Shown here piece after piece: positions 4,753 through 31,449 of a DNA stretch of 43,607 bases. Source of the DNA: a virus (lineage: Duplodnaviria; Heunggongvirae; Uroviricota; Caudoviricetes). The stretch spans positions 1-43,607 of the IMG/VR virus record IMGVR_UViG_2541047966_000006. The stretch is one strand, 5' to 3'. How positions within the stretch are numbered: position 1 is the stretch's first letter; each line of letters opens with the position of its first letter. A program made the position numbers and the translations under genes. The notes under the pieces were generated by a model. The model was not told the origin of the DNA. It was given only the letters and a program-made list of their open reading frames with translations, and searched no databases.

Positions 4753-5354
4753 TGGTTGCCTCCTTTGCGAAGCTGGGCAGCAAAGTCAACTAACCACTCA
4801 GTCATTTCAACCTTCCCTACCAGGTCTGAACCAGGGTGCATACAGCAATCACTCTGCGCCGCTTTGAAATCCTTATACTCATATTCTTGGGCCACCAGAT
4901 TTTTTGCAGCTTCTATAGCAGCATCCACCCCCTGCGCCCGCACTTCAGACAGGAAAGCATCGGTAGCTGGAGTTTCGATATCGTTAATTTCAGGAAGAAT
5001 CTCTTCCCATGTAGCGATATCGCCATTCAAATGCCATCCGGCAATTCCACTGGAGTTATCCGCAACACTCCGAACGGCTTCAATAGTTTCATGCATTGCC
5101 GCATTCTCCGCCGCAAGCGCCGAAAACTTCTCGTGTGCCAACTTAACAGCTGCATCAGCCTGCTTAATTGACTCAATCGCTCTCTGCTGGTCTTCGGACA
5201 GAGCCGAAATCTTGGCCTCCGCTTCAGCAAATTTACGCACCAGATATTCAGCATTTGTTTCGTTAACCTTTAAATCTCGTGGGATGCATTTACCTTTCAG
5301 AAAACCATCCATCTCAATTAGTGACATTTGTTTCATTTCTTCCCACTCCGCCAC
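4749..5354 (-). CDS. Ea22-like early protein
   Basis: 201-aa acidic ORF; start may be the internal ATG at 5336 (ATGA overlap with an upstream small ORF). Confidence 0.55.
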
Positions 5355-5497
5355 ATCGCATTCAGATATTTGTTTTGATTCACTGATGGAAAAGAATTTC
5401 TCTTAAGCAATTCCTCTCTCGATGGCATTGGCTTTACGCGTTGGCGAATAATCATTTCTGCTGGAAGAATGCCGGGATTGTATGCAAGTCCTCTCAT
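5333..5497 (-). CDS. hypothetical small protein (54 aa)
   Basis: Hand-translated [28 protein letters not shown]... with SD GAGGAA; stop overlaps downstream start (ATGA). Confidence 0.3.
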
Positions 5498-5513
5498 GGT
5501 AAATTCCTCTTTG

Positions 5514-5828
5514 TTAATTTATTCGTATGCCTGTTCTCTCTTCATCGAGTTTTTTTAGCTTGTATCGCATAGCTCTTACTGAATAAATTGAGCGGCAGGT
5601 TGCAATTGCTATTTCTTCTGCGGAGAACTTACCGAAAAGTGATACTTCGGCTCTTGTCCATCGTCTTCCACGAAGTCGGCTAACAATGTCAGCGCCAATC
5701 CTTGTTGCTTTCGCCATTACTGCTTTTTCAGTCCTTTCCAGTTTTTCAGCGATAACTTCAACTGGCATTGTCGCCGCCACTTCGCGCAAGAAATCGACTT
5801 CCCATTTCTCCCATGGAGTCTTTTTCAT
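5514..5828 (-). CDS. hypothetical early protein with two HTH-like repeats
   Basis: 104-aa ORF, 4-bp spacing patterns with neighbours; internal repeat W-x-x-W-E/W-T-R-A-E ... EEIA. Confidence 0.45.
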
Positions 5829-5839
5829 AGGCGATACAA

Positions 5840-6328
5840 TTATTTGATAAGAAGTGAAGGTTTCCCAACTTTGAGTTGAGCACCGGGGATATTTATTCCT
5901 GCTTTTAGTTGGTGTTTGATTGCCAGTTTGTCGGCTTTAATTGTCGTTTCAAACTCAACGTATTCAGGAGGAATGGCGCTTGAGTCGATGATTTCTACAG
6001 TTTCTGACGGTTTGCGGATTGTTACCTGGTGAATACCTGCTCGAATCTTTTTCTTGCCAACCATTTCAAGCGATGACGCTATATACGCCATAATGCTGTC
6101 AATCTTATTTTGAATTACTGCGGCTCGCTCATTTAGTGACTTTGCCTCTTCCTTGAGGCGTTCAGCATAACCAGATTCATTTTTAATAATGGCGAGAAGT
6201 TGCTCTATTTTATCGGTAAATTCTCCTTCCATGCCTTCTATTGTGTCAGCAATCATCTCTGGCTCTAAATCTGAATCCATCAATTTTGCGTATTCATTGG
6301 CAATTTCATACAGTTTGCTCACTGGCAA
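5840..6328 (-). CDS. Siphovirus Gp157-like protein (RecT-associated)
   Basis: 162-aa ORF directly downstream of recT, overlapping its stop; N-terminal LYEIANEYAKLMD...coiled coil and C-terminal PPEYVEF pattern resemble Gp157 family as I recall it. Confidence 0.5.
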   Translation of the reverse strand: MPVSKLYEIANEYAKLMDSDLEPEMIADTIEGMEGEFTDKIEQLLAIIKNESGYAERLKEEAKSLNERAAVIQNKIDSIMAYIASSLEMVGKKKIRAGIHQVTIRKPSETVEIIDSSAIPPEYVEFETTIKADKLAIKHQLKAGINIPGAQLKVGKPSLLIK

Positions 6329-7208
6329 CCTCCAGTTTCGCTTTGCATTCTGCGTAAATGGCTTGTACGTTCTGCTGCAATTTCATTCCAGCTGTCAGGC
6401 GATATGCTTCTGCAAAATATCGCTTCAAATCATCCATGTTTTCTGCCTGAGCCATTTCATCACAAAGAAGTTGTGCTTTATCCATTATTTCCTGCTGGCG
6501 TTTCCGTTCATCTTCGCGTATATCTTCCTCTGATTTGTGCGGCATAACTGGTTCAGTCCATACACCTTCTTCTTCATTTAATACGTGAATAGCACTATCA
6601 AGACGTGATGCTTTAGGCCAGTATTTGCTGGCGCGTTTAACTATTGTTTTACGTGCCATCTCTTCCCAGAATGTCTTCCACGGTCCATTCTTTGCCTTGC
6701 TCGTTGCTTCCACAGCTTTAATTTCTGCCAGACTCATTTCTTCAGTCAGGTAGTCACCATCTGCTGTTTTAACCGTGCAATAACCACCAACAATAGAGCC
6801 TCGCTCACCAAATGCGGTGTATTTGTGGGTTGGCGCTGAATCAAGGCCGTTTGATTCATAGGTGTCGTTTGAGTACACCAGTTTACATTGCCCCCACTTA
6901 ATTGATCCTGTCGACTGTGCAAGGTGAAGTAATCCCATATAGCTGATATCAAGGCAAACCATGCCGTCGCGCGGAACTAGATAAGCAAGTTTGCTGGCCG
7001 GGTTTAAGGTGATGCCGATCGCCGCAACATTGATGATGGCGTTCTGTGCGCTGGTTGGATTTGCCAGTGCCGTTTTAGCCAGGTAATCATTTTTCTGGAA
7101 ATACTGAATTGCAAACTGGCTTTCCTTAGCCCATGTCACCGTCTGTTCAGTCAATGCTCCGCAGAATAACTGCTCTTGCTGTTTAACGAATTCAACGATA
7201 TTGCTCAT
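6306..7208 (-). CDS. recT: RecT-family single-strand annealing recombinase
   Basis: 300-aa ORF; RecT/Bet-like sequence features recalled from memory; position in the recombination module of the early-left operon. Confidence 0.8.
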   Translation of the reverse strand: MSNIVEFVKQQEQLFCGALTEQTVTWAKESQFAIQYFQKNDYLAKTALANPTSAQNAIINVAAIGITLNPASKLAYLVPRDGMVCLDISYMGLLHLAQSTGSIKWGQCKLVYSNDTYESNGLDSAPTHKYTAFGERGSIVGGYCTVKTADGDYLTEEMSLAEIKAVEATSKAKNGPWKTFWEEMARKTIVKRASKYWPKASRLDSAIHVLNEEEGVWTEPVMPHKSEEDIREDERKRQQEIMDKAQLLCDEMAQAENMDDLKRYFAEAYRLTAGMKLQQNVQAIYAECKAKLEVASEQTV

Positions 7209-7516
7209 GCTGCTTCTCCAAAAATGTGTCTGCGTTTGAATATTGCGAAGGCATATTCAGCCTTAACTCTTTCGGTTATTGCATCCCAGAACCATTCAGC
7301 GGCTTTTTCCTGATAGTTACAGTCATCATCTTCCAGCCAGTCGATAGCGTCCTTAGTGTGTTCATCTGGTTTATATGAGCGAAGCATTTCGCTTATTGGG
7401 TCGCAACGTTTGCAGAGGCGATCAACTTCACTGTTGATTCGCTCGTAATCTTCATCAGTAAAACTTGCGATTATTTGCGATATTTCACGCTTATCATTCA
7501 GAGTCAGAATCATCAT
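7205..7516 (-). CDS. hypothetical early protein (kil-position)
   Basis: 103-aa ORF with ATGA-type overlap with recT start; no recognised domain. Confidence 0.45.
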   Translation of the reverse strand: MMILTLNDKREISQIIASFTDEDYERINSEVDRLCKRCDPISEMLRSYKPDEHTKDAIDWLEDDDCNYQEKAAEWFWDAITERVKAEYAFAIFKRRHIFGEAA

Positions 7517-7597
7517 CTTTCTCCTGTTCTTTGTGCTGATTGAGCATTTTGTTCATCTGACGAATGAATTCTTCGTCTGACCAGTTATCCGTAAAAC

Positions 7598-7768
7598 TCA
7601 TGGACGGCCTTGTTGTTTCAAAATATCCCAAAGCTTTTCGAGCAAACTTTTCATTCTTGGTTGTTTAAAGTCTGCTCCGGTTAAAATATTTTTTCGTGAA
7701 TGCTGCACCGATAAAATCGGGTTGAAAGGGCGAACCGATGCCGCCCCTGCAATAGCGAACTGTTGCAT
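7598..7768 (-). CDS. cIII-like protease inhibitor peptide (56 aa)
   Basis: Hand-translated MQQFAIAGAASVRPF...KSLLEKLWDILKQQGRP; resembles lambda CIII (MQYAIAG...LIDILNQPGVP); SD AAGGAG upstream. Confidence 0.45.
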   Translation of the reverse strand: MQQFAIAGAASVRPFNPILSVQHSRKNILTGADFKQPRMKSLLEKLWDILKQQGRP

Positions 7769-7843
7769 AGGATGCTCCTTCTGTTTGATTGCATAACGAA
7801 AACGCCTCGAGTGAAGCGTTATTGGTATGCGGTAAAGCCGCGC

Positions 7844-8212
7844 TCAGGCGGCTTTGATAGTCATATCATCTGAATCAAATATTCCAGATGTGTCGATATC
7901 GGTAATTCTTATTCCTTCACTACCATCCATTGGAGGCCATCCTTCCTGACCATTTCCATCATTCCAGTCGAACTCACACACAACACCATATGCATTTAAG
8001 TCGCTTGAAATTGCTATAAGCAGAGCATGTTGCGCCAGCATGATTAATACAGCATTTAATACAGAGCCGTGTTTATTGAGTCGGTATTCAGAGTCTGACC
8101 AGAAATTATTAATCTGGTGAAGTTTTTCCTCTGTCATTACGTCATGGTCGATTTCAATTTCTATTGATGCTTTCCAGTCGTAATCAATGATGTATTTTTT
8201 GATGTTTGACAT
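7844..8212 (-). CDS. hypothetical early protein
   Basis: 122-aa acidic ORF just downstream of the tL1-like terminator in leftward operon. Confidence 0.5.
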   Translation of the reverse strand: MSNIKKYIIDYDWKASIEIEIDHDVMTEEKLHQINNFWSDSEYRLNKHGSVLNAVLIMLAQHALLIAISSDLNAYGVVCEFDWNDGNGQEGWPPMDGSEGIRITDIDTSGIFDSDDMTIKAA

Positions 8213-8230
8213 CTGTTTATATCCTCACAG

Positions 8231-8258
8231 ATAAAAAATCGCCCTCACACTGGAGGGC
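8231..8258 (-). terminator. rho-independent terminator (tL1-like) in early-left operon
   Basis: Minus strand GCCCTC-CAGTGT-GAGGGC hairpin followed by GATTTTTTAT. Confidence 0.55.
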
Positions 8259-8475
8259 AAAGAAGATTTCCAATAATCAGAACAAGTCGGCTCCTGTTTA
8301 GTTACGAGCGACATTGCTCCGTGTATTCACTCGTTGGAATGAATACACAGTGCAGTGTTTATTCTGTTGTTTATGCCAAAAATAAAGGCCACCATCAGGC
8401 AGCCTTGTTGTTCTGTTTACCAGGTTCTCTGGCAATCATTGCCGTAGTTCGTATTGCCCACACCATTGATTCTTA

Positions 8476-8562
8476 TCAATAGTCGTAGTCATACGGATAG
8501 TCCTGGTATTGTTCCATCACATCCTGAGGATGCTCTTCGAACTCTTCAAATTCTTCTTCCAT
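8476..8562 (-). CDS. acidic aromatic microprotein (28 aa), putative
   Basis: ORF MEEEFEEFEEHPQDVMEQYQDYPYDYDY 8 nt downstream of N stop with SD GAGGTGA; coding status unproven. Confidence 0.3.
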   Translation of the reverse strand: MEEEFEEFEEHPQDVMEQYQDYPYDYDY

Positions 8563-8570
8563 ATCTCACC

Positions 8571-8897
8571 TCAAATAAGTGGTTTGCTGCCTAATTTCAT
8601 TTTCTGGCGACCAACACAAGTCACACCCATTTCACTGCGTGGCTTGCTGTACCATGTGCGCTGATTCTTGCGCTCAATACGTTGCAGGTTGCTTTCAATC
8701 TGTTCGTGGTATTCAGCCAGCACCGTAAGGTCTATCGGATTCAGTGCGCTTTCTACTCGTGATTTCAGTTTGCGATTCAGCGAGAGAATAGGGCGATTAA
8801 CTGGTTTTGCGCTTACCCCAACCAACAGGGGATTTGCTGCTTTCCATTGAGCCTGTTTCTCTGCGCGACGTTCGCGGCGGCGTGTTTGTGCATCCAT
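8571..8897 (-). CDS. N: antitermination protein N (lambda-type)
   Basis: Protein from ATG 8897 begins MDAQTRRRERRAEKQAQWKAANPLLVGVSAKPVNRPIL..., near-identical to lambda N (arginine-rich motif); SD AGGAGA. Confidence 0.9.
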   Translation of the reverse strand: MDAQTRRRERRAEKQAQWKAANPLLVGVSAKPVNRPILSLNRKLKSRVESALNPIDLTVLAEYHEQIESNLQRIERKNQRTWYSKPRSEMGVTCVGRQKMKLGSKPLI

Positions 8898-21026: not shown

Positions 21027-21515
21027 ATGGCAGCACCAAAGGGCAACCGATTTTGGGAGGCCCGCAGTAGTCATGGGCGAAATCCTAAATTCGAATCGCC
21101 TGAGGAGCTGTGGGCTGCTTGTTGTGAATACTTCGAGTGGGTGGAAGCTAACCCGCTATGGGAGATGAAGGCGTTCTCGTATCAGGGTGAAGTGATACAA
21201 GAACCTATCGCCAAGATGCGAGCGATGACCATTACCGGCCTCACTCTGTTCATTGATGTGACGCTTGAAACATGGCGCACATATCGCCTGAGAGAAGATT
21301 TATCTGAAGTCGTTACGCGAGCAGAGCAGGTCATCTACGATCAGAAATTCTCTGGCGCAGCCGCTGACCTTCTCAACGCTAACATCATCGCCCGTGATTT
21401 GGGCCTCAAAGAGCAGTCGCAAGTTGAAGACGTGACACCTGATAAGGGAGATCGCGATAAGCGACGCTCTCGTATCAAGGAGCTATTCAACCGTGGAACT
21501 GGACGCGATTCTTGA
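21027..21515 (+). CDS. terminase small subunit (P22 gp3)
   Basis: [56 protein letters not shown]... near-identical to P22 gp3 as recalled; the ORF-track ATG at 21021 is 2 codons upstream. Confidence 0.9.
21294..21315 (+). promoter_or_regulatory. pac site (headful packaging initiation) within gene 3
   Basis: GAAGATTTATCTGAAGTCGTTA matches the P22 pac consensus as recalled. Confidence 0.7.
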
Positions 21516-22992
21516 TAACCTGAGCGACGAAGAGCAAATCGAGTTGCTCGAGCTACTCGAAGAAGAAGAGAACTACCGGAACACACACTTGCTATATGAA
21601 TTTACGCCATACAGCAAACAGCGTGAGTTCATCGACGCCGGACATGACTATCCAGAGCGATGTTTTATGGCTGGTAACCAGCTTGGTAAGTCATTTACTG
21701 GTGCTGCTGAAGTCGCGTTTCACCTTACCGGGCGTTATCCGGGCACAAAAGGCTATCCTGCTGATGGTAAATATGGCGGGGAGTGGAAAGGTAAGCGTTT
21801 CTATGAGCCTGTTGTCTTCTGGATTGGCGGCGAGACAAACGAGACTGTAACCAAAACGACTCAACGTATCCTGTGCGGTCGTATCGAAGAGAATGATGAG
21901 CCTGGCTACGGTTCCATACCGAAAGAAGACATCATTAGCTGGAAGAAGTCTCCTTTCTTTCCGAACCTTGTTGATCATCTTCTGGTTAAGCATCACACGG
22001 CTGATGGCGTTGAAGATGGCATTTCAATCTGCTACTTCAAACCATACTCGCAAGGCCGTGCTCGCTGGCAGGGTGACACAATCCACGGCGTGTGGTTTGA
22101 CGAAGAGCCACCATACAGCATTTATGGCGAAGGTCTTACCCGTACCAACAAATACGGGCAATTCTCAATTCTGACGTTTACCCCGCTGATGGGGATGTCT
22201 GACGTTGTTACCAAGTTCCTGAAGAATCCCAGCAAGTCGCAGAAAGTGGTCAACATGACCATCTACGACGCTGAGCACTACACAGACGAGCAGAAAGAGC
22301 AAATCATCGCATCCTATCCCGAGCATGAGAGAGAGGCGCGTGCTCGCGGTATTCCTACGATGGGTAGTGGTCGAATCTTCCAGATACCGGAAGAGACGAT
22401 TAAGTGTCAGCCGTTCGAGTGTCCTGATCACTTCTACGTAATTGGCGGGATGGATTTCGGATGGGATCACCCACAGGCGCAGGTTCAGCTTTGGTGGGAT
22501 AAGGACGCAGACACAATCTACGTTTCACGCGTGTGGAAGGCGAAAGAAAAAACAGCCGTTCAGGCATGGGGAGCTGTTAAATCATGGGCGCATAAAGTGC
22601 CAACCGCATGGCCTCATGACGGAAACCAGCACGAGAAGGGCGGCGGTGAGCAGCTCAAAGGGCAGTATGCAGATGCTGGTTTTATGATGTTGCAGGAGCA
22701 TGCGACATGGCCTGATGGCGGTAATGCTGTGGAGCCTGGCATCACTGAATTGCGCGACATGATGATCGACGGTCGCTTCAAAGTATTCAACACCTGTGAG
22801 CCATTCTTTGAGGAGTTCCGCCTCTATCACCGTGATGAAAACGGGAAAATCGTCAAGCTTAACGACGACGTTCTCTCAGCCGTTCGCTATGCATACATGA
22901 TGCGCCGCTTCGCCAAAATGATGCGCGACATCAAAAAACCAAAAGAGAAAAAGATACCAGCCCCAATCAGGCCCATCGCACGGAGAACTTAA
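21493..22992 (+). CDS. terminase large subunit (P22 gp2)
   Basis: 499-aa ORF overlapping gp3 end; Walker-type ATPase and nuclease regions; GTG start. Confidence 0.9.
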
Positions 22993-25158
22993 ATGGCCGA
23001 CGAAAACAGACTCAATTCCATTCTGTGTAAGTTTGACGCAGACTGGATGGCGAGCGATGAAGCCAGAACCGAGGCGACAAATGACCTGTATTTTAGCCGA
23101 GTGTCGCAATGGGATGACTGGCTATCAAACTACACGACCCTGCAATATCGCGGACAATTCGATGTTGTTCGCCCGGTGGTCAGGAAACTGGTCGCAGAGA
23201 TGCGCCGGAACCCTATCGACGTTCTCTTCCGACCCAAAGACGGCGCTAATCCTGATGCAGCCGATGTGTTGATGGGGATGTATCGTACTGATATGCGCCA
23301 TAACACGGCAAAGATTGCCGTTAACGTTGGCGTTCGTGAGCAGATAGAGTCTGGCGTTGGTGCATGGCGTCTGGTCACGCAGTACGAAGACAACGATCCA
23401 ACAAGCAACAATCAGGTAATTCGACGCCTGCCAATCCATGAGGCCTGCTCACACGTCATATGGGACGCCAACAGCAAGCAGATGGATAAGAGCGACGCTA
23501 AGCACTGCACGGTGATTAACGCTTTGTCACGCAATGGCTGGAAAGAGTTCGCAGAGGATTACGGTATTGATCCTGACACCCTGCCATCTTTCCAGAATCC
23601 GAACGACACATGGCTGTTTCCGTGGGTATCGAATGATGTCGTCTACGTCGCCGAGTATTACGAGGTAGAAGAGAAGAAGGAGAAAGTCTTCATCTACCGC
23701 GACCCGCTGACAGGTGAGCCGGTCAGCTATTACCAGCAGGATATTAAAGACGTTATCGACGACCTGGCTAATCGTGGATTCATTAAGGTAGCAGAGCGCA
23801 AGGTGAAGCGTCGGCGTGTGTATAAGTCGATCATCACCTGCACGCAGATACTGAAAGACCGCGAGAAGATAGCCGGAGAGCATATTCCAATCGTTCCAGT
23901 GTATGGCGAATGGTCATTCGCTGGTGACAAGGAGTGCTACGAAGGAGTGGTAAGGCTGACGAAAGACGGTCAGCGGCTTCGTAACATGATCATGTCATTC
24001 AACGCCGATATTGTTGCTCGTTCACCGAAGAAGAAACCGACCTTCTTCCCTGAGCAAATCGAAGGCTACGAATACATGTACGGTGGAAATGATGACTATC
24101 CGTACTATCTGCAGAACAGGACCGATGAAAACGGTAACGACCTGCCGATTGGTCCAATCTCCTACATGGAAAACCCTGAAGTGCCGCAAGCCAACGCTTA
24201 CATGCTTGAGGCTGCCACCAACGCAGTGAAAGAGGTGGCTAGTCTTGGTGTGGATGCGCAGGCAGCAAACTCTCAGGTCGCTTTCGATACCGTCAATCAA
24301 CTGAACATGCGGGCAGACCTTGAGACATACGTGTTTCAGGATAACCTGGCTACCGCAATGCGACGTGATGGCGAGATTTATGCCTCAATGGTCAACGATA
24401 TTTATGACGTTCCTCGTCATGTAACGCTGACACTTGAAGATGGAAGCGAGAAAGACGTTCAACTCTATGCGCAAGTTGTCGATTACCAGTCCGGCAATGT
24501 GGTCACACTCAACGACATTCGCGGTCGCTATGAGTGCTATACAGACGTTGGGCCATCCTTCCAGAGCATGAAGGAACAGAATCGCGCAGAGATTCAGGAG
24601 TTACTCACCAAGGTTCCGCAAGGTACTCCAGAGTTCCAGATGCTGATGCTGCAATACTTCACGCTGCTTGACGGTAAAGGCGTCGAGATGATGCGAGAGT
24701 ACGCGAACAAGCAACTGGTGATGATGGGGCTGAAGAAACCAGAAACACCTGAAGAGATGGATATGGTACAGCAGGCTCAACAGCAGCCGCAGCAGCCATC
24801 AGCAGAGCAAATTCAGGCGCAGGGTATCCTTCTGCAAGGTCAGGCTGAATTGCTCAAGGCAGAGAACCAACAGGCGCAGATTCAGGTTGAAGCCGCCAAG
24901 GTTGAAGCCCAAAACCAACTCAACGCCGCGAAGATTGCAGAAATCTTCAACAATATGGACCTCGACAAACAGGCAGAACTGCGTGAGTACCTCAAGCTCG
25001 TAGGCCAATTCCAGCAACAGCGCAGCAAAGACGCTCGCGCTAACGCTGAGCTGCTTCTTAAAGATGCAGACCAGACTCATTCACAACGCATGGATTTCGC
25101 GAATCTTATGCGTCAAGTTCAAATCCCCTCCGGCGGAGTAGCCGAGACACCTCAATAA
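22993..25158 (+). CDS. portal protein (P22 gp1)
   Basis: 721-aa protein highly similar to P22 portal along its length, including Gln-rich C-terminal barrel region. Confidence 0.95.
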
Positions 25159-27422: not shown

Positions 27423-27665
27423 ATGACACACATGATCTTTCGTCATGGCGACATGAAGAAATGGAAAGGCGTTGGCTACGACTTTGAAATCGTGAAAGCC
27501 GAAGAGCTTCAGGAATATCTGGATGCTGGCTGGTTTTCACATCCTGATGACCTTTTGAAGGATGTTGCAGAGCCAGAGCCAGAGCCAGAGCCAGAAGAAA
27601 AACAGCGTAAAAAGCCTGGTCGAAAACCTAAGGCGGCAGCAGATGAACCTGACAACGAAGGGTGA
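27423..27665 (+). CDS. small acidic protein with Pro-Glu repeat
   Basis: 80-aa [19 protein letters not shown]...[29 protein letters not shown]; overlaps gp4 start. Confidence 0.5.
27571..27594 (+). repeat. hexanucleotide tandem repeat (AGCCAG)x4
   Basis: Four perfect tandem copies encoding (EP)n within the small ORF. Confidence 0.8.
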
Positions 27666-28143
27666 TTTAGTTCTTGCGGCATTACGTAAGCTCGGTGTGG
27701 CATCAAATGCCACGTTAACCGATGTAGAACCGCAGTCTATGGAAGACGGCGTCAACGACCTTGAAATGATGATGGCTGAATGGCTTGGCGGTGATGTGTC
27801 ACCAGGTATCAACGTTGGCTACATTTTCGCTGATGCAGATGTCGCTCCAGATCCGGGAGATGAGCACGGTTTATCAAATAACGCTATCAATGCCGTCATT
27901 TTCAACCTTGCCTGCCGCATTGCACCGGATTATGCGCTGGAAGCGTCAGCAAAACTTATAACCACTGCCAGATACGGGAAAGAGCGACTCGTCAAACTGT
28001 CTGCAATGGACAGAGCAAAAGCCGCTAAATGTAAGTCCGGTTATCCAAACCGTATGCCTGTTGGTAGCGGTAACCAGTTGGCGAAGTGGAACGGTTGGAA
28101 TTACTTCCACCGAAAGGAACCTTGCGATAACGGGAGCGAATAA
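27643..28143 (+). CDS. head completion / tail accessory protein (P22 gp4)
   Basis: Protein from ATG 27643: [33 protein letters not shown]... P22 gp4-like. Confidence 0.85.
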
Positions 28144-29562
28144 ATGCCTATTCAGCAACTTCCGCTTATGAAAGGTGTCGGCAAAGACTTCCGAAATGCC
28201 GACTATATCGACTATCTGCCAGTGAATATGTTGGCTACACCCAAAGAAATCCTCAACAGCAGCGGATATCTTCGCTCATTCCCGGGCATTGCCAAACGTT
28301 CTGATGTGAACGGCGTATCGCGAGGCGTCGAGTACAACATGGCGCAGAATGCTGTTTATCGCGTGTGTGGCGGCAAGCTCTACAAAGGCGAAAGCGAAGT
28401 CGGTGATGTTGCCGGAAGTGGTCGCGTATCAATGGCGCATGGGCGGACATCACAGGCGGTAGGCGTTAATGGTCAACTGGTCGAATACCGCTATGATGGC
28501 ACGGTTAAAACCGTCTCAAACTGGCCTACAGACAGCGGATTCACGCAGTATGAGTTGGGTTCTGTTCGTGACATTACGCGCTTACGCGGGCGTTATGCGT
28601 GGTCAAAAGACGGAACTGATTCATGGTTTATCACTGACCTTGAAGACGAATCGCATCCTGACCGCTACAGCGCACAATATCGCGCAGAGTCTCAGCCTGA
28701 CGGCATCATCGGCATCGGAACATGGCGAGATTTCATCGTCTGCTTTGGTTCATCGACGATTGAATATTTCTCCCTGACGGGTGCAACCACCGTTGGTGCT
28801 GCTTTGTATGTCGCACAGACATCTCTTATGGTGCAGAAAGGCATTGCCGGGACTTACTGCAAAACGCCATTCTCTGATTCTTATGCGTTCATCAGCAATC
28901 CGGCAACAGGTGCTCCGTCTGTGTATATCATCGGCTCCGGTCAGGTATCACCAATCGCCAGCGCGAGCATTGAGAAAATTCTCCGCTCCTACACTGCTGA
29001 TGAACTGGCTGATGGTGTGATGGAGTCTCTGCGATTTGATGCGCATGAGCTGCTGATTATCCATCTTCCGCGCCATGTTCTCGTGTACGACGCATCTTCA
29101 AGCGCCAATGGTCCGCAATGGTGTGTACTGAAAACAGGCCTGTATGACGATGTGTACCGCGCTATCGACTTCATTTACGAAGGCAATCAGATAACGTGCG
29201 GCGATAAGCTGGAATCCGTGACCGGGAAATTGCAGTTCGATATCAGCAGTCAGTACGACAAGCAACAGGAACATATTTTATATTCTCCTTTAATAAAGGC
29301 AGATAACGTTTTAATAAATGACCTTGAATTAGAAACATCTGGCGGCGTGTGTGATAGAATAGATAGAATATTTATATCAGCAACTACAGATGGAATTAAT
29401 TACGGTCGTGAGCAAATGGTCGTATTACAAAAACCATTTGTATATGACAATCGCGTTTTATGGCGAAAAGTTGGTCGAGTTAGACGCCTCATTGGATTTA
29501 AATTCAGAGTTATTGCAAAAGGTCCTGTTACATTATCAGGCCTTTCTATTCGTGTAACATAA
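28144..29562 (+). CDS. tail accessory protein (P22 gp10)
   Basis: 472-aa ORF in gp4-gp10-gp26 order; last ~95 codons are markedly AT-rich. Confidence 0.85.
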   Translation: MPIQQLPLMKGVGKDFRNADYIDYLPVNMLATPKEILNSSGYLRSFPGIAKRSDVNGVSRGVEYNMAQNAVYRVCGGKLYKGESEVGDVAGSGRVSMAHGRTSQAVGVNGQLVEYRYDGTVKTVSNWPTDSGFTQYELGSVRDITRLRGRYAWSKDGTDSWFITDLEDESHPDRYSAQYRAESQPDGIIGIGTWRDFIVCFGSSTIEYFSLTGATTVGAALYVAQTSLMVQKGIAGTYCKTPFSDSYAFISNPATGAPSVYIIGSGQVSPIASASIEKILRSYTADELADGVMESLRFDAHELLIIHLPRHVLVYDASSSANGPQWCVLKTGLYDDVYRAIDFIYEGNQITCGDKLESVTGKLQFDISSQYDKQQEHILYSPLIKADNVLINDLELETSGGVCDRIDRIFISATTDGINYGREQMVVLQKPFVYDNRVLWRKVGRVRRLIGFKFRVIAKGPVTLSGLSIRVT

Positions 29563-29583
29563 ATCGAAACTAAAGGAGTAGAT

Positions 29584-30129
29584 ATGTTGAGTGAAAACGC
29601 AAAAGATATTCCTGGATATGAAGGTTTATATGCCGTAACAGAGGATGGGCGAGTATATTCTCACTCACGTGTTGTTAAGGCTGCGCATGGCAGCACGCAA
29701 CTCAGAAAGGGTCGGTGGCTAAAACAACACGAGAATAATAAAGGTTATCTATATTTGCCACTTAGTGTTGATGGAGTTAAAGTAAAATGGCTTGTGCATA
29801 GGCTTGTCGCTCTTGCTTTCGTCCCCAATCCAGAAGGCAAGCCGTTCATAAATCACATAGATAACAACCGAAAAAATAATAATGCTTCTAATTTAGAGTG
29901 GTGTACTCAAAAGGAGAATATGAAGCATTGCTCATCTCAAGGCAGGGTGAAGTTTCCGGCTTTAAAAGGAGAAAATAATCCAATTTCAAAGCTCTCATAT
30001 GAGCAAGTAATAGAAATAAAGAAATCAAAGGGAGTTAATCAAAGAGAGCTTGCTAAAAAATACTGTGTCAGTCAGACGGTGATTCACAATATCCAGTCTG
30101 GTAAATCGTGGAGGCATGTTAATGGCTGA
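29584..30129 (+). CDS. free-standing HNH homing endonuclease (NUMOD4/HNH_3-like with C-terminal HTH)
   Basis: [16 protein letters not shown] and [16 protein letters not shown] motifs; AT-rich; inserted between gp10 and gp26; SD AAAGGAG. Confidence 0.75.
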
Positions 30130-30970
30130 TTCGAATCTCAATGTGCCGGTAATCATCCAAGCTACGCGACTCGACACATCAGTGCTTCCACGCAATATCT
30201 TCTCGCAGTCGTATCTGCTTTACGTTATCGCACAGGGTACTGATGTTGGTAATGTGGCGAACAAGGCCAACGAGGCCGGACAGGGCGCTTATGACGCACA
30301 AGTCAGGAACGATGAGCAGGATGTGATTCTCTCTGACCATGAGCAGCGAATTTCTGCTGCGGAAGCAACGCTTGTTAATCATGAGGAGCGAATCAGCCAG
30401 GCAGAATCAACTCTTCAGGAACATGAAACGCGAATCGCTCAGAATGAAAGCGATATTGCGTCGCTTGATACCAGAGTTCAGTCGCTGGAATCGCAGGTTT
30501 CAGACCATGAAACGCGCATCGATGCTCTGGAGTATGCCACTACTCGCAAGAAGTCAGAGGTTGTTTACTCTGGCGTATCTGTAACCATCCCGACAGCGCC
30601 GACCAACCTTGTTAGCCTGCTGAAAACGCTCACGCCGTCATCCGGCACGTTGGCACCATTCTTCGACACCGTTAACAACAAGATGGTTGTGTTCAACGAG
30701 AACAAAACCTTGTTCTTCAAGCTGTCGATCGTCGGGACGTGGCCCAGCGGAACCGCCAACAGGTCAATGCAGCTAACCTTTTCCGGCTCTGTTCCTGACA
30801 CACTGGTAAGCAGTCGCAACTCGGCGACAACAACCGATAACATCTTGTTAGCTACGTTCTTCAGCGTGGATAAAGACGGCTTTCTTGCCACAAATGGCAG
30901 CACGTTAACCATTCAGTCAAATGGTGCGGCGTTTACTGCCACAACCATCAAAATCATTGCGGAGCAGTGA
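30122..30970 (+). CDS. tail needle (P22 gp26-like) with divergent C-terminal knob
   Basis: N-terminus [43 protein letters not shown] matches gp26; central heptad repeats; C-terminal ~140 aa not P22-like. Confidence 0.8.
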
Positions 30971-31449
30971 TGGAAATAAAGCTCATCGATAATCCGGTGA
31001 AGCTTGCAGAATTCCTCAACAACCCGGCAAACACGGGAAATATCGTAGACAGTGGAGATAAATACTACATCAAGCCTGATGCGGTATACCTCGGCATCTA
31101 CGAAGGATTAGTGCTGGCTGGCGTTCATGAAGTGCGTAACTTCTGGCATAGCGTTGTTGAATGCCATGCGGTGTACGACCCCGGATTCCGTGGTGAATAT
31201 GCACTGCAAGGGCATCGATTATTCTGCAAATGGCTTCTCGAAAACTCACCATTCCTTAACAGCATCACCATGGTTCCTGACACAACGAAATACGGACGGG
31301 CAATTATCCGTTTGCTTGGCGCTACCCGTGTTGGTCACCTCGATGATGCTTATACCAGCAATGGAAAGCCTGTAGGCATCACGATTTATCAGTTACCGCG
31401 CTCAAAATACGAGGAGCTAAAGAATGTTAATTTTCCAGATTGCCAATAA
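30967..31449 (+). CDS. P22 gp14-like protein
   Basis: 160-aa ORF in the gp26-gp14-gp7 order; call is by position. Confidence 0.5.

Follow-up and report, generated by a model that had tools for sequence, protein, structure and literature searches.

Comparative analysis of the P22-like (Lederbergvirus, Sf6/HK620-type) prophage in IMG/VR virus record IMGVR_UViG_2541047966_000006, the whole 43,607-nucleotide (nt) stretch of which is referred to here as the window, suggests that positions 29274-30129 are quite probably a mobile cassette that has been spread by nuclease-driven intronless homing. This putative cassette comprises the recoded 3' end of gp10 (hereafter the tail), a spacer and a gene encoding an HNH endonuclease. 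The gene gp10 encodes the tail hub or head closure protein Hc3, also named "packaged DNA stabilization protein", and the late genes of the prophage are found in the standard order.

The gp10-HNH region and its junctions

The features of this region are the following, with lengths in amino acids (aa) and compositions given as adenine plus thymine (AT) or guanine plus cytosine (GC):

28144-29562, + strand: gp10, whole, 472 aa; Pfam PF11134 Phage_stabilise, E = 1e-282, residues 4-471, profile positions 1-468 of 469
28144..29273, + strand: native part of gp10, codons 1-377; left homology arm
29274..29562, + strand: recoded AT-rich gp10 tail, codons 378-472 and stop; part of the putative mobile cassette
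29563..29583, + strand: 21-nt spacer with the AAGGAG Shine-Dalgarno sequence for the HNH gene
29584..30129, + strand: free-standing HNH endonuclease gene, 181 aa; NUMOD4, HNH_3 and C-terminal helix-turn-helix; I-HmuI-like
30100..30129, + strand: right junction region, from alignment to Sf6, HK620 and the locus L005, which has a second HNH allele
30122..30970, + strand: gp26 tail needle, Sf6 knob type; right homology arm; Pfam Phage_tail_NK, E = 1e-117

The original prediction had placed an HNH gene within the otherwise syntenic tail-accessory cluster between gp10 and gp26, which is borne out by open reading frame (ORF) calls, Pfam and alignments to Sf6 and HK620. It had also placed, from position 29270, a switch to AT-rich composition about 290 base pairs (bp) before the gp10 stop; the switch was found at 29274, which is gp10 nt 1131 and lies 289 bp before the end of the stop codon. 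Measured in 200-nt windows, a GC content of 0.50-0.54 gives way to one of 0.36-0.41 between approximately 29200 and 30100 before recovering to 0.51, and the AT-richness continues through the HNH gene as predicted, with 37.5% GC in 29274-30119 compared to a window mean of 46.8% (standard deviation 4.1%, windows of 846 nt). The GC content at third codon positions (GC3) is 0.53 in gp10 nt 1-1131 (codons 1-377), 0.18 in the tail (codons 378-472), 0.35 in the HNH gene and 0.57 in gp26; overall GC is 0.34 in the tail and 0.40 in the HNH gene, and the corresponding Sf6 tail has a GC3 of 0.61. About five further AT-rich islands are present in the window, all of them outside the virion gene cluster. 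It is the location of the step within an essential gene that is unique, not the composition step by itself. The islands (846-nt windows below 42% GC) extend over approximately 5200-6750, 7300-8800, 35560-37700, 38720-40300 and 40630-43607, with a minimum of 29% near 42640, and correspond to the early region and the surroundings of a 901-aa ORF (39069-41774), a putative tailspike by size and position.

Regarding the junctions, which were to be located by alignment with P22-like genomes lacking the insert, such alignments placed them at gp10 nt 1131 and at the motif TAATGGC. The left junction is a step, with an identity per 60-nt block of 85-100% to Sf6, HK620 and UPF_BP1 up to gp10 nt 1131 (29273/29274) and of approximately 55% from there to the stop codon. 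The right junction at TAATGGC (~30119-30125) coincides with the old overlap of the gp10 stop and the gp26 start, and similarity to HNH-less phages resumes there. In comparison with Sf6 and HK620, 846 nt of tail, spacer and HNH gene stand in place of the native final 289 nt of gp10, a gain of approximately 560 nt. Upstream of the step, the native part of gp10 has 94-95% DNA identity to Sf6, HK620 and HZ41, and its first 1095 nt are 100% identical to a prophage of Escherichia coli DLL7555.

The gp10 gene can be aligned codon for codon and without indels to those of Sf6, HK620 and UPF_BP1, all encoding 472 aa, and length and frame are kept, in agreement with the expectation that the native C-terminal coding sequence had been replaced in frame. 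Compared to Sf6, the 95 tail codons include 18 that are identical, 41 with synonymous differences and 36 with amino-acid changes, while the 377 upstream codons include 319 identical ones, 53 synonymous differences and only 5 amino-acid changes.

The spacer ATCGAAACTAAAGGAGTAGAT directly precedes the ATG of the HNH gene, with AAGGAG located 7 nt before the ATG, and is kept in both HNH alleles described below, in the loci L048, L050 and L052, and before the HNH gene at a second site in UPF_BP1. In E. coli M160133 (L007, 2865-3562) and its IMG/VR copy (L041), an IS1 element lies between the gp10 stop and the HNH gene and parts the latter from its ribosome-binding site. The gp10 stop and the gp26 start overlap in HNH-less phages (GAGTAATGGC), where the preceding AAGGA is the ribosome-binding site of gp26. 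In the window the HNH frame ends in ...TGG AGG CAT GTT AAT GGC TGA (3' end sequence TGGAGGCATGTTAATGGCTGA), from which gp26 gains a new Shine-Dalgarno sequence, GGAGG, and the stop of the HNH gene lies across codons 2-3 of gp26; the translational coupling of gp26 is predicted to be kept, now from the HNH gene. The program ORF call puts the gp26 start at 30116 (MLMADS...), while the true start is probably at 30122 (MADSNLNV), because the gp26 proteins of Sf6 and HK620 align from MADSNL and in PGAP annotations of identical loci gp26 begins 8 nt within the HNH ORF.

Regarding the HNH protein, Pfam detected NUMOD4 (44.1 bits, cut-off 23.4, E = 2e-11) and HNH_3 (40.8 bits, cut-off 24.8, E = 2e-10) as well as a weak C-terminal match to HTH_3 (E = 0.005). 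The best solved relative by sequence is the homing endonuclease I-HmuI (PDB 1u3e; E = 2e-12, ~27% identity). An AlphaFold2 model based on 63 homologs has a predicted local distance difference test (pLDDT) score of 90.6, and in a Foldseek comparison of this model with the PDB the sole match with E < 0.001 was again 1u3e, over 182 columns and the full length (E = 6e-9). An inactive or degenerate HNH motif had been named as a finding that would speak against the original prediction; residues N90, H91, N103, L104, W106, N112 and H115, which are invariant in the 63-sequence alignment, are all present in the window protein. H91 aligns with the general base H75 of I-HmuI and N112 with its metal ligand N96, while the position of I-HmuI D74 is taken by N90 in the window protein and all 62 aligned relatives. 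The ORF is predicted to encode an intact I-HmuI-type HNH endonuclease of the NUMOD4/HNH_3 family, and the PGAP label of the gene is already "NUMOD4 domain-containing protein".

The gene is a free-standing nuclease gene within the late operon, since it has its own ribosome-binding site, no intron match, no terminal repeats and no promoter or terminator. A search for a promoter or terminator of the HNH gene's own gave no signal above chance, no further HNH copy was found in the window, and neither terminal repeats nor a target duplication were found at the cassette. An intron-encoded HNH gene was rejected, because 28800-30500 gave no match to an Rfam intron family at E up to 1 and gp10 and gp26 are uninterrupted; a transposon was rejected because transposon-like ends and terminal repeats are lacking. 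A terminase-associated HNH gene (HK97 gp74-like) was also considered and set aside, the gene being located between gp10 and gp26, more than 4 kb downstream of the ORFs at 21493-22992 and 22993-25158. These two ORFs are taken for terminase and portal because of where they lie in the P22-like gene order, and, from ORF positions, terminase, portal, scaffold and coat genes are placed upstream of gp4.

Linkage, horizontal movement and neighbouring genes

The distribution of tail and HNH gene was investigated in a phage collection in which 130 records match gp10, in 5426 complete E. coli genomes (920 with a close gp10), in eight IMG/VR contigs containing a tail-specific 31-mer, and in the species representative genomes of GTDB. 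Among the phage records, HZ41 is the only carrier of the same tail and HNH gene (1 of 130; HNH 99.8% identical), while neither was detected at the gp10-gp26 site in the other 129 P22-like records, including Sf6, HK620, P22 and UPF_BP1. The AT-rich tail and spacer were found in 52 of the 920 gp10-bearing E. coli genomes (~5.7%), 16 of which have the same 181-aa HNH gene; the other carriers have the start of a second allele, as judged from identity bands and from all of the matches among those listed. This second allele (177 aa, WP_000947776) is 49% identical, has an intact motif and is present at the same site after the same tail (L005, 2834-3367; L013, 2311-2844; and others). It shares with the window allele only ~90 nt at the 5' end and 21 nt at the 3' end, and the nuclease genes themselves therefore appear mosaic. 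All eight IMG/VR contigs carry one of the two alleles, and the tail is likewise linked to an HNH gene in one Salmonella contig, in one metagenome contig and in the loci L008, L009, L046, L048, L050 and L052.

More distant HNH homologs (85, 75, 68 and 61% identical), when traced to their contigs, were each found between gp10 and gp26 after a spacer of 21-27 nt, and the tails preceding them are closer in protein sequence to the window tail (83-88% identity; 70% in Providencia rettgeri) than to the Sf6 tail (61-63%). The GC drop occurs at the same place in these loci except in Providencia, where the whole gp10 has ~43% GC. In the P. rettgeri prophage (L046) the tail and HNH gene are 70% and 69% identical, gp10 is uniformly 42-45% GC and the tail GC3 is 0.46; this prophage was considered as source of the AT-rich composition and rejected, since its tail GC3 is not low. 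Neither a tail without an HNH gene nor an HNH gene at the gp10-gp26 site without the tail was found among the loci examined. HNH-less relatives with the same AT-rich tail, which would have spoken against the original prediction, were found neither in the 129 phage records nor in 22 HNH-less gp10 loci of GTDB species representatives, the tails of which have at most 65% protein identity and no HNH gene nearby.

Across loci the cassette is 96-100% identical while its flanks are 72-96% identical, as seen in the following loci compared to the window:

L043: tail 100%, HNH 99.8%, gp10 5' part 90.7%, gp26 5' part 78%
L044: tail 95.8%, HNH 97.0%, gp10 5' part 82.4%, gp26 5' part 71.8%
HZ41 (L003): tail 100%, HNH 99.8%, gp10 5' part 94.3%, gp26 5' part 77.6%

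The cassette is found with several types of gp4 and with different types of gp26, i.e., P22-type needles of 233 aa and knob-type needles of 284 and 316-317 aa. In a neighbour-joining tree of the tails, all HNH-linked tails form one clade, with Providencia basal, apart from all HNH-less tails, while HNH-linked and HNH-less phages are intermingled in a tree of gp10 residues 60-377. The locus L052 and the HNH-less Buttiauxella locus L022 are neighbours in the tree of the gp10 N-terminal part and have ~92% identity up to nt 1140 and 55% beyond. Judging from these identities, the cassette has been transferred recently among diverged backgrounds, tail and HNH gene together. The greater conservation of the cassette than of its flanks and the incongruence of the two trees also agree with the earlier suggestion that the endonuclease arrived with flanking sequence; the tail, as placed by these comparisons, is the constant part of an old cassette lineage and not an occasional co-conversion tract.

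The left crossover in the E. coli set is located either at nt 1131 (window, HZ41, L007, L010-L012) or at nt 1101 (L005, L006, L013-L015), and these two classes are independent of the HNH allele. Across loci the left boundary ranges over gp10 nt 1101-1140 (~1140 in L052), and this near-constancy is explained by the conservation of nt 1050-1131 in all gp10 genes and by tails too diverged to recombine.

A mirror-image HNH cassette was detected at the other end of gp10, between gp4 and gp10, in the Salmonella phage UPF_BP1 (L002, 1384-2176), in E. coli K56-43-un (L014, 198-990) and in an IMG/VR contig (L043, 2804-3596), and is present in 18 complete E. coli genomes. It consists of a remnant of the native gp10 5' end (92 nt, then stop codons), a window-type spacer with Shine-Dalgarno sequence, a 194-aa HNH gene and a recoded gp10 nt 1-120, in which 8 of 40 residues are changed. 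The HNH protein is 54% identical overall to that of the window, with the first 46 residues nearly identical. Both cassettes are found together in L014 (339-923 and 2311-2844) and L043 (2945-3463 and 4917-5459), where gp10 is bracketed by HNH genes of the same orientation that share ~160 nt at 87% identity. Such a bracketed gp10 fits the idea of "HEG islands", HEG standing for homing endonuclease gene, of Barth et al. 2023 (PMC10448857).

The genes neighbouring this region are the following:

27562-28143: gp4, from the ORF call
30967-31449: gp14, followed by the ejection proteins

The gp4 type of the window (27562-28143) is common to HZ41, L005 and L007 at 97-99% identity, but has no blastn match to the gp4 region of Sf6 and HK620 and is ~67% identical to the P22-type gp4 of UPF_BP1, which suggests another mosaic boundary at the gp4/gp10 junction.

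Proposed mechanism and alternative explanations

In the proposed mechanism the nuclease would be made from the late operon, as its own Shine-Dalgarno sequence and the lack of its own promoter or terminator suggest. On co-infection, or with a resident prophage, it may nick or cut an HNH-less P22-like genome, either within the native 3' end of gp10 or at the conserved junction between gp10 stop and gp26 start. The break would be resected beyond the unpairable region of ~55% identity, and repair would copy the cassette from the HNH-bearing genome, with crossovers just upstream of gp10 nt 1101-1140 and in the first gp26 codons; the fixed junctions and the joint transfer of tail and HNH gene are the part of this step that is seen in the genomes compared. 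The recoded tail leaves gp10 full-length and in frame, and removal of the native sequence would prevent the carrier from being cut. The HNH 3' end, as read from the sequence, replaces the gp26 ribosome-binding site that was once in the gp10 3' end, with the stop/start overlap keeping the coupling. A purely hypothetical candidate target is the gp10/gp26 junction CAGATAAGGATTGAGTAATGGC, which is near-invariant in 11 HNH-less phages of Escherichia, Salmonella, Pseudescherichia, Citrobacter and Buttiauxella and is split and rewritten in carriers; its near-invariance is explained by the gp26 ribosome-binding site that lies in it.

Several points weigh against nuclease-driven homing. We infer cleavage and homing from comparison of genomes, the target site is a guess, and the genome comparisons would look the same after ordinary homologous recombination without a nuclease. 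Among solved relatives the closest, I-HmuI, is a nickase and not a double-strand cutter, and its D74 is replaced by N90 here and throughout the aligned relatives. The frequency in E. coli (~5.7%) is lower than would be expected of an efficient drive, but many of the prophages counted are defective. A native full-length AT-rich gp10 that could have donated the tail was found neither in phage records (best non-cassette match 66% by tblastn on 50,697 records), nor in a collection of 5.8 billion proteins (only cassette copies above 66%), nor in GTDB species genomes (at most 65%). With a GC3 of 0.18, the tail lies below both its linked HNH gene (0.35) and the cassette tails found in other backgrounds (0.28-0.46), a difference that simple import from an AT-rich host fails to explain; the tail may alternatively have been selected to diverge as far as possible from native alleles (GC3 ~0.6).

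Alternatively, tail and HNH gene may be a passive module spread by ordinary homologous recombination at conserved flanks, with a nuclease that is inactive or irrelevant. P22-like phages are well known for mosaicism (PMC10307801), both junctions fall where every gp10 and every gp26 gene has a conserved stretch, and the cassette is rare (52 of 920 genomes). This explanation appears unlikely, however, since the HNH catalytic residues are invariant across proteins diverged to ~40% identity, which argues for selection on activity, and since the linkage has been kept while HNH has diverged to 60% and the tail to 70%, though the two are merely 21 nt apart. It also leaves unexplained why two different HNH alleles were recruited to one site, and why a second HNH cassette of the same design is present at the other gp10 end. 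The gp10 tail might, instead of being imported, have been recoded in place under selection to resist the adjacent nuclease. Such recoding would account for the synonymous changes in 41 of the 59 amino-acid-preserving codons and for the AT shift being strongest at third codon positions, but is hardly credible given that 36 of 95 residues differ (38% protein divergence), that the tail represents a deep clade apart from all HNH-less tails in phages of several genera, and that the left junction is a step and not a gradient.

The nuclease might instead mainly serve the phage, either by attacking P22-like phages or prophages that compete with it (marker exclusion) or as a DNA-processing factor like the terminase-associated HNH proteins. 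In favour of such a role, the candidate site is near-invariant in HNH-less phages of several genera, and a single E. coli genome holds up to three gp10-bearing prophages; moreover, I-HmuI and I-HmuII give flanking markers a competitive advantage in SPO1 and SP82, to which PMC2988022 alludes. Regarding the terminase-accessory role, the HNH gene is located 6.6 kb from the terminase genes, which makes this role unlikely. Growth does not require the HNH gene, since about 94% of the related prophages in E. coli and almost every sequenced relative lack it. Against a terminase-accessory role it also counts that P22-like phages package DNA by a headful mechanism. A nuclease mainly serving the phage is thus quite improbable as the primary explanation, less probable than the passive module; a competition role is nevertheless compatible with homing, as a consequence of the same cut, and not exclusive of it.

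Nuclease-driven homing thus remains the preferred reading, and it may tentatively be extended. It is possible, at rather less than even chances, that the HNH gene and the rewritten gp10 end are a long-lived "portable immune gene-end" that has co-diverged across P22-like genera and that, together with the mirror cassette, can bracket gp10 and cause the tail-hub gene to be replaced in its entirety when phages meet resident prophages. The AT bias (GC3 0.18) would then have been selected, making the tail unpairable with native alleles and the nuclease inseparable from its resistant target.

Significance and relation to known systems

Most evidence for intronless homing so far comes from T-even and ICP1 phages. 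The cassette described here would be a clear but ordinary case of phage intronless homing, and as a clean natural example in temperate P22-like phages it would add a system with full genetics and tail-machine structures. It illustrates how an essential tail-hub gene can gain a chimeric C-terminus without loss of function and accounts for one sharp mosaic boundary in P22-like phages. Regarding annotation, a "NUMOD4 domain-containing protein" in such prophages flags a putative mobile cassette, the adjoining gp10 proteins are chimeras, and the HNH gene supplies the start and ribosome-binding site of gp26. The nuclease may also serve as a tool for marker-driven editing of P22, Sf6 and HK620. In the searchable literature, in which a key P22-like comparative paper (Casjens and Thuman-Commike 2011) was not covered, no description of the cassette or of the recoded gp10 end was found, and the only HNH found in the P22-like literature was an unrelated HNH fusion in the epsilon34 early region.

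The window protein resembles I-HmuI of Bacillus phage SPO1 (PDB 1U3E) in its NUMOD4 beta-rich N-terminal DNA-binding region, its HNH beta-beta-alpha-metal core and its C-terminal helix-turn-helix, while I-HmuI is intron-encoded and the window HNH gene is free-standing. HEGs have been described at boundaries of genetic exchange beside essential genes, and in "HEG islands", in ICP1 and other phages (Barth, Dunham and Seed 2023, PMC10448857). The cassette resembles these systems in having an HNH_3-type HEG beside an essential structural gene and alleles replaceable at one site; it differs in that P22-like phages apparently lie outside that study and in that the cargo is only a gene end, and not a whole gene or operon. 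In genetic arrangement the cassette is like SegF, SegG and MobE of T-even phages, where a nuclease gene lies between conserved genes, is present or absent in syntenic phages and is transferred together with flanking coding sequence, and where intronless homing with co-conversion and marker exclusion involves repair of the cut genome from the carrier (PMC2988022). In contrast to these T-even HEGs, the host of the window cassette is a temperate P22-like phage and most copies are found in prophages; moreover, the co-transferred piece is a fixed, deeply diverged and always-linked 289-nt gene end, whereas that of the T-even phages is a variable, near-identical tract.

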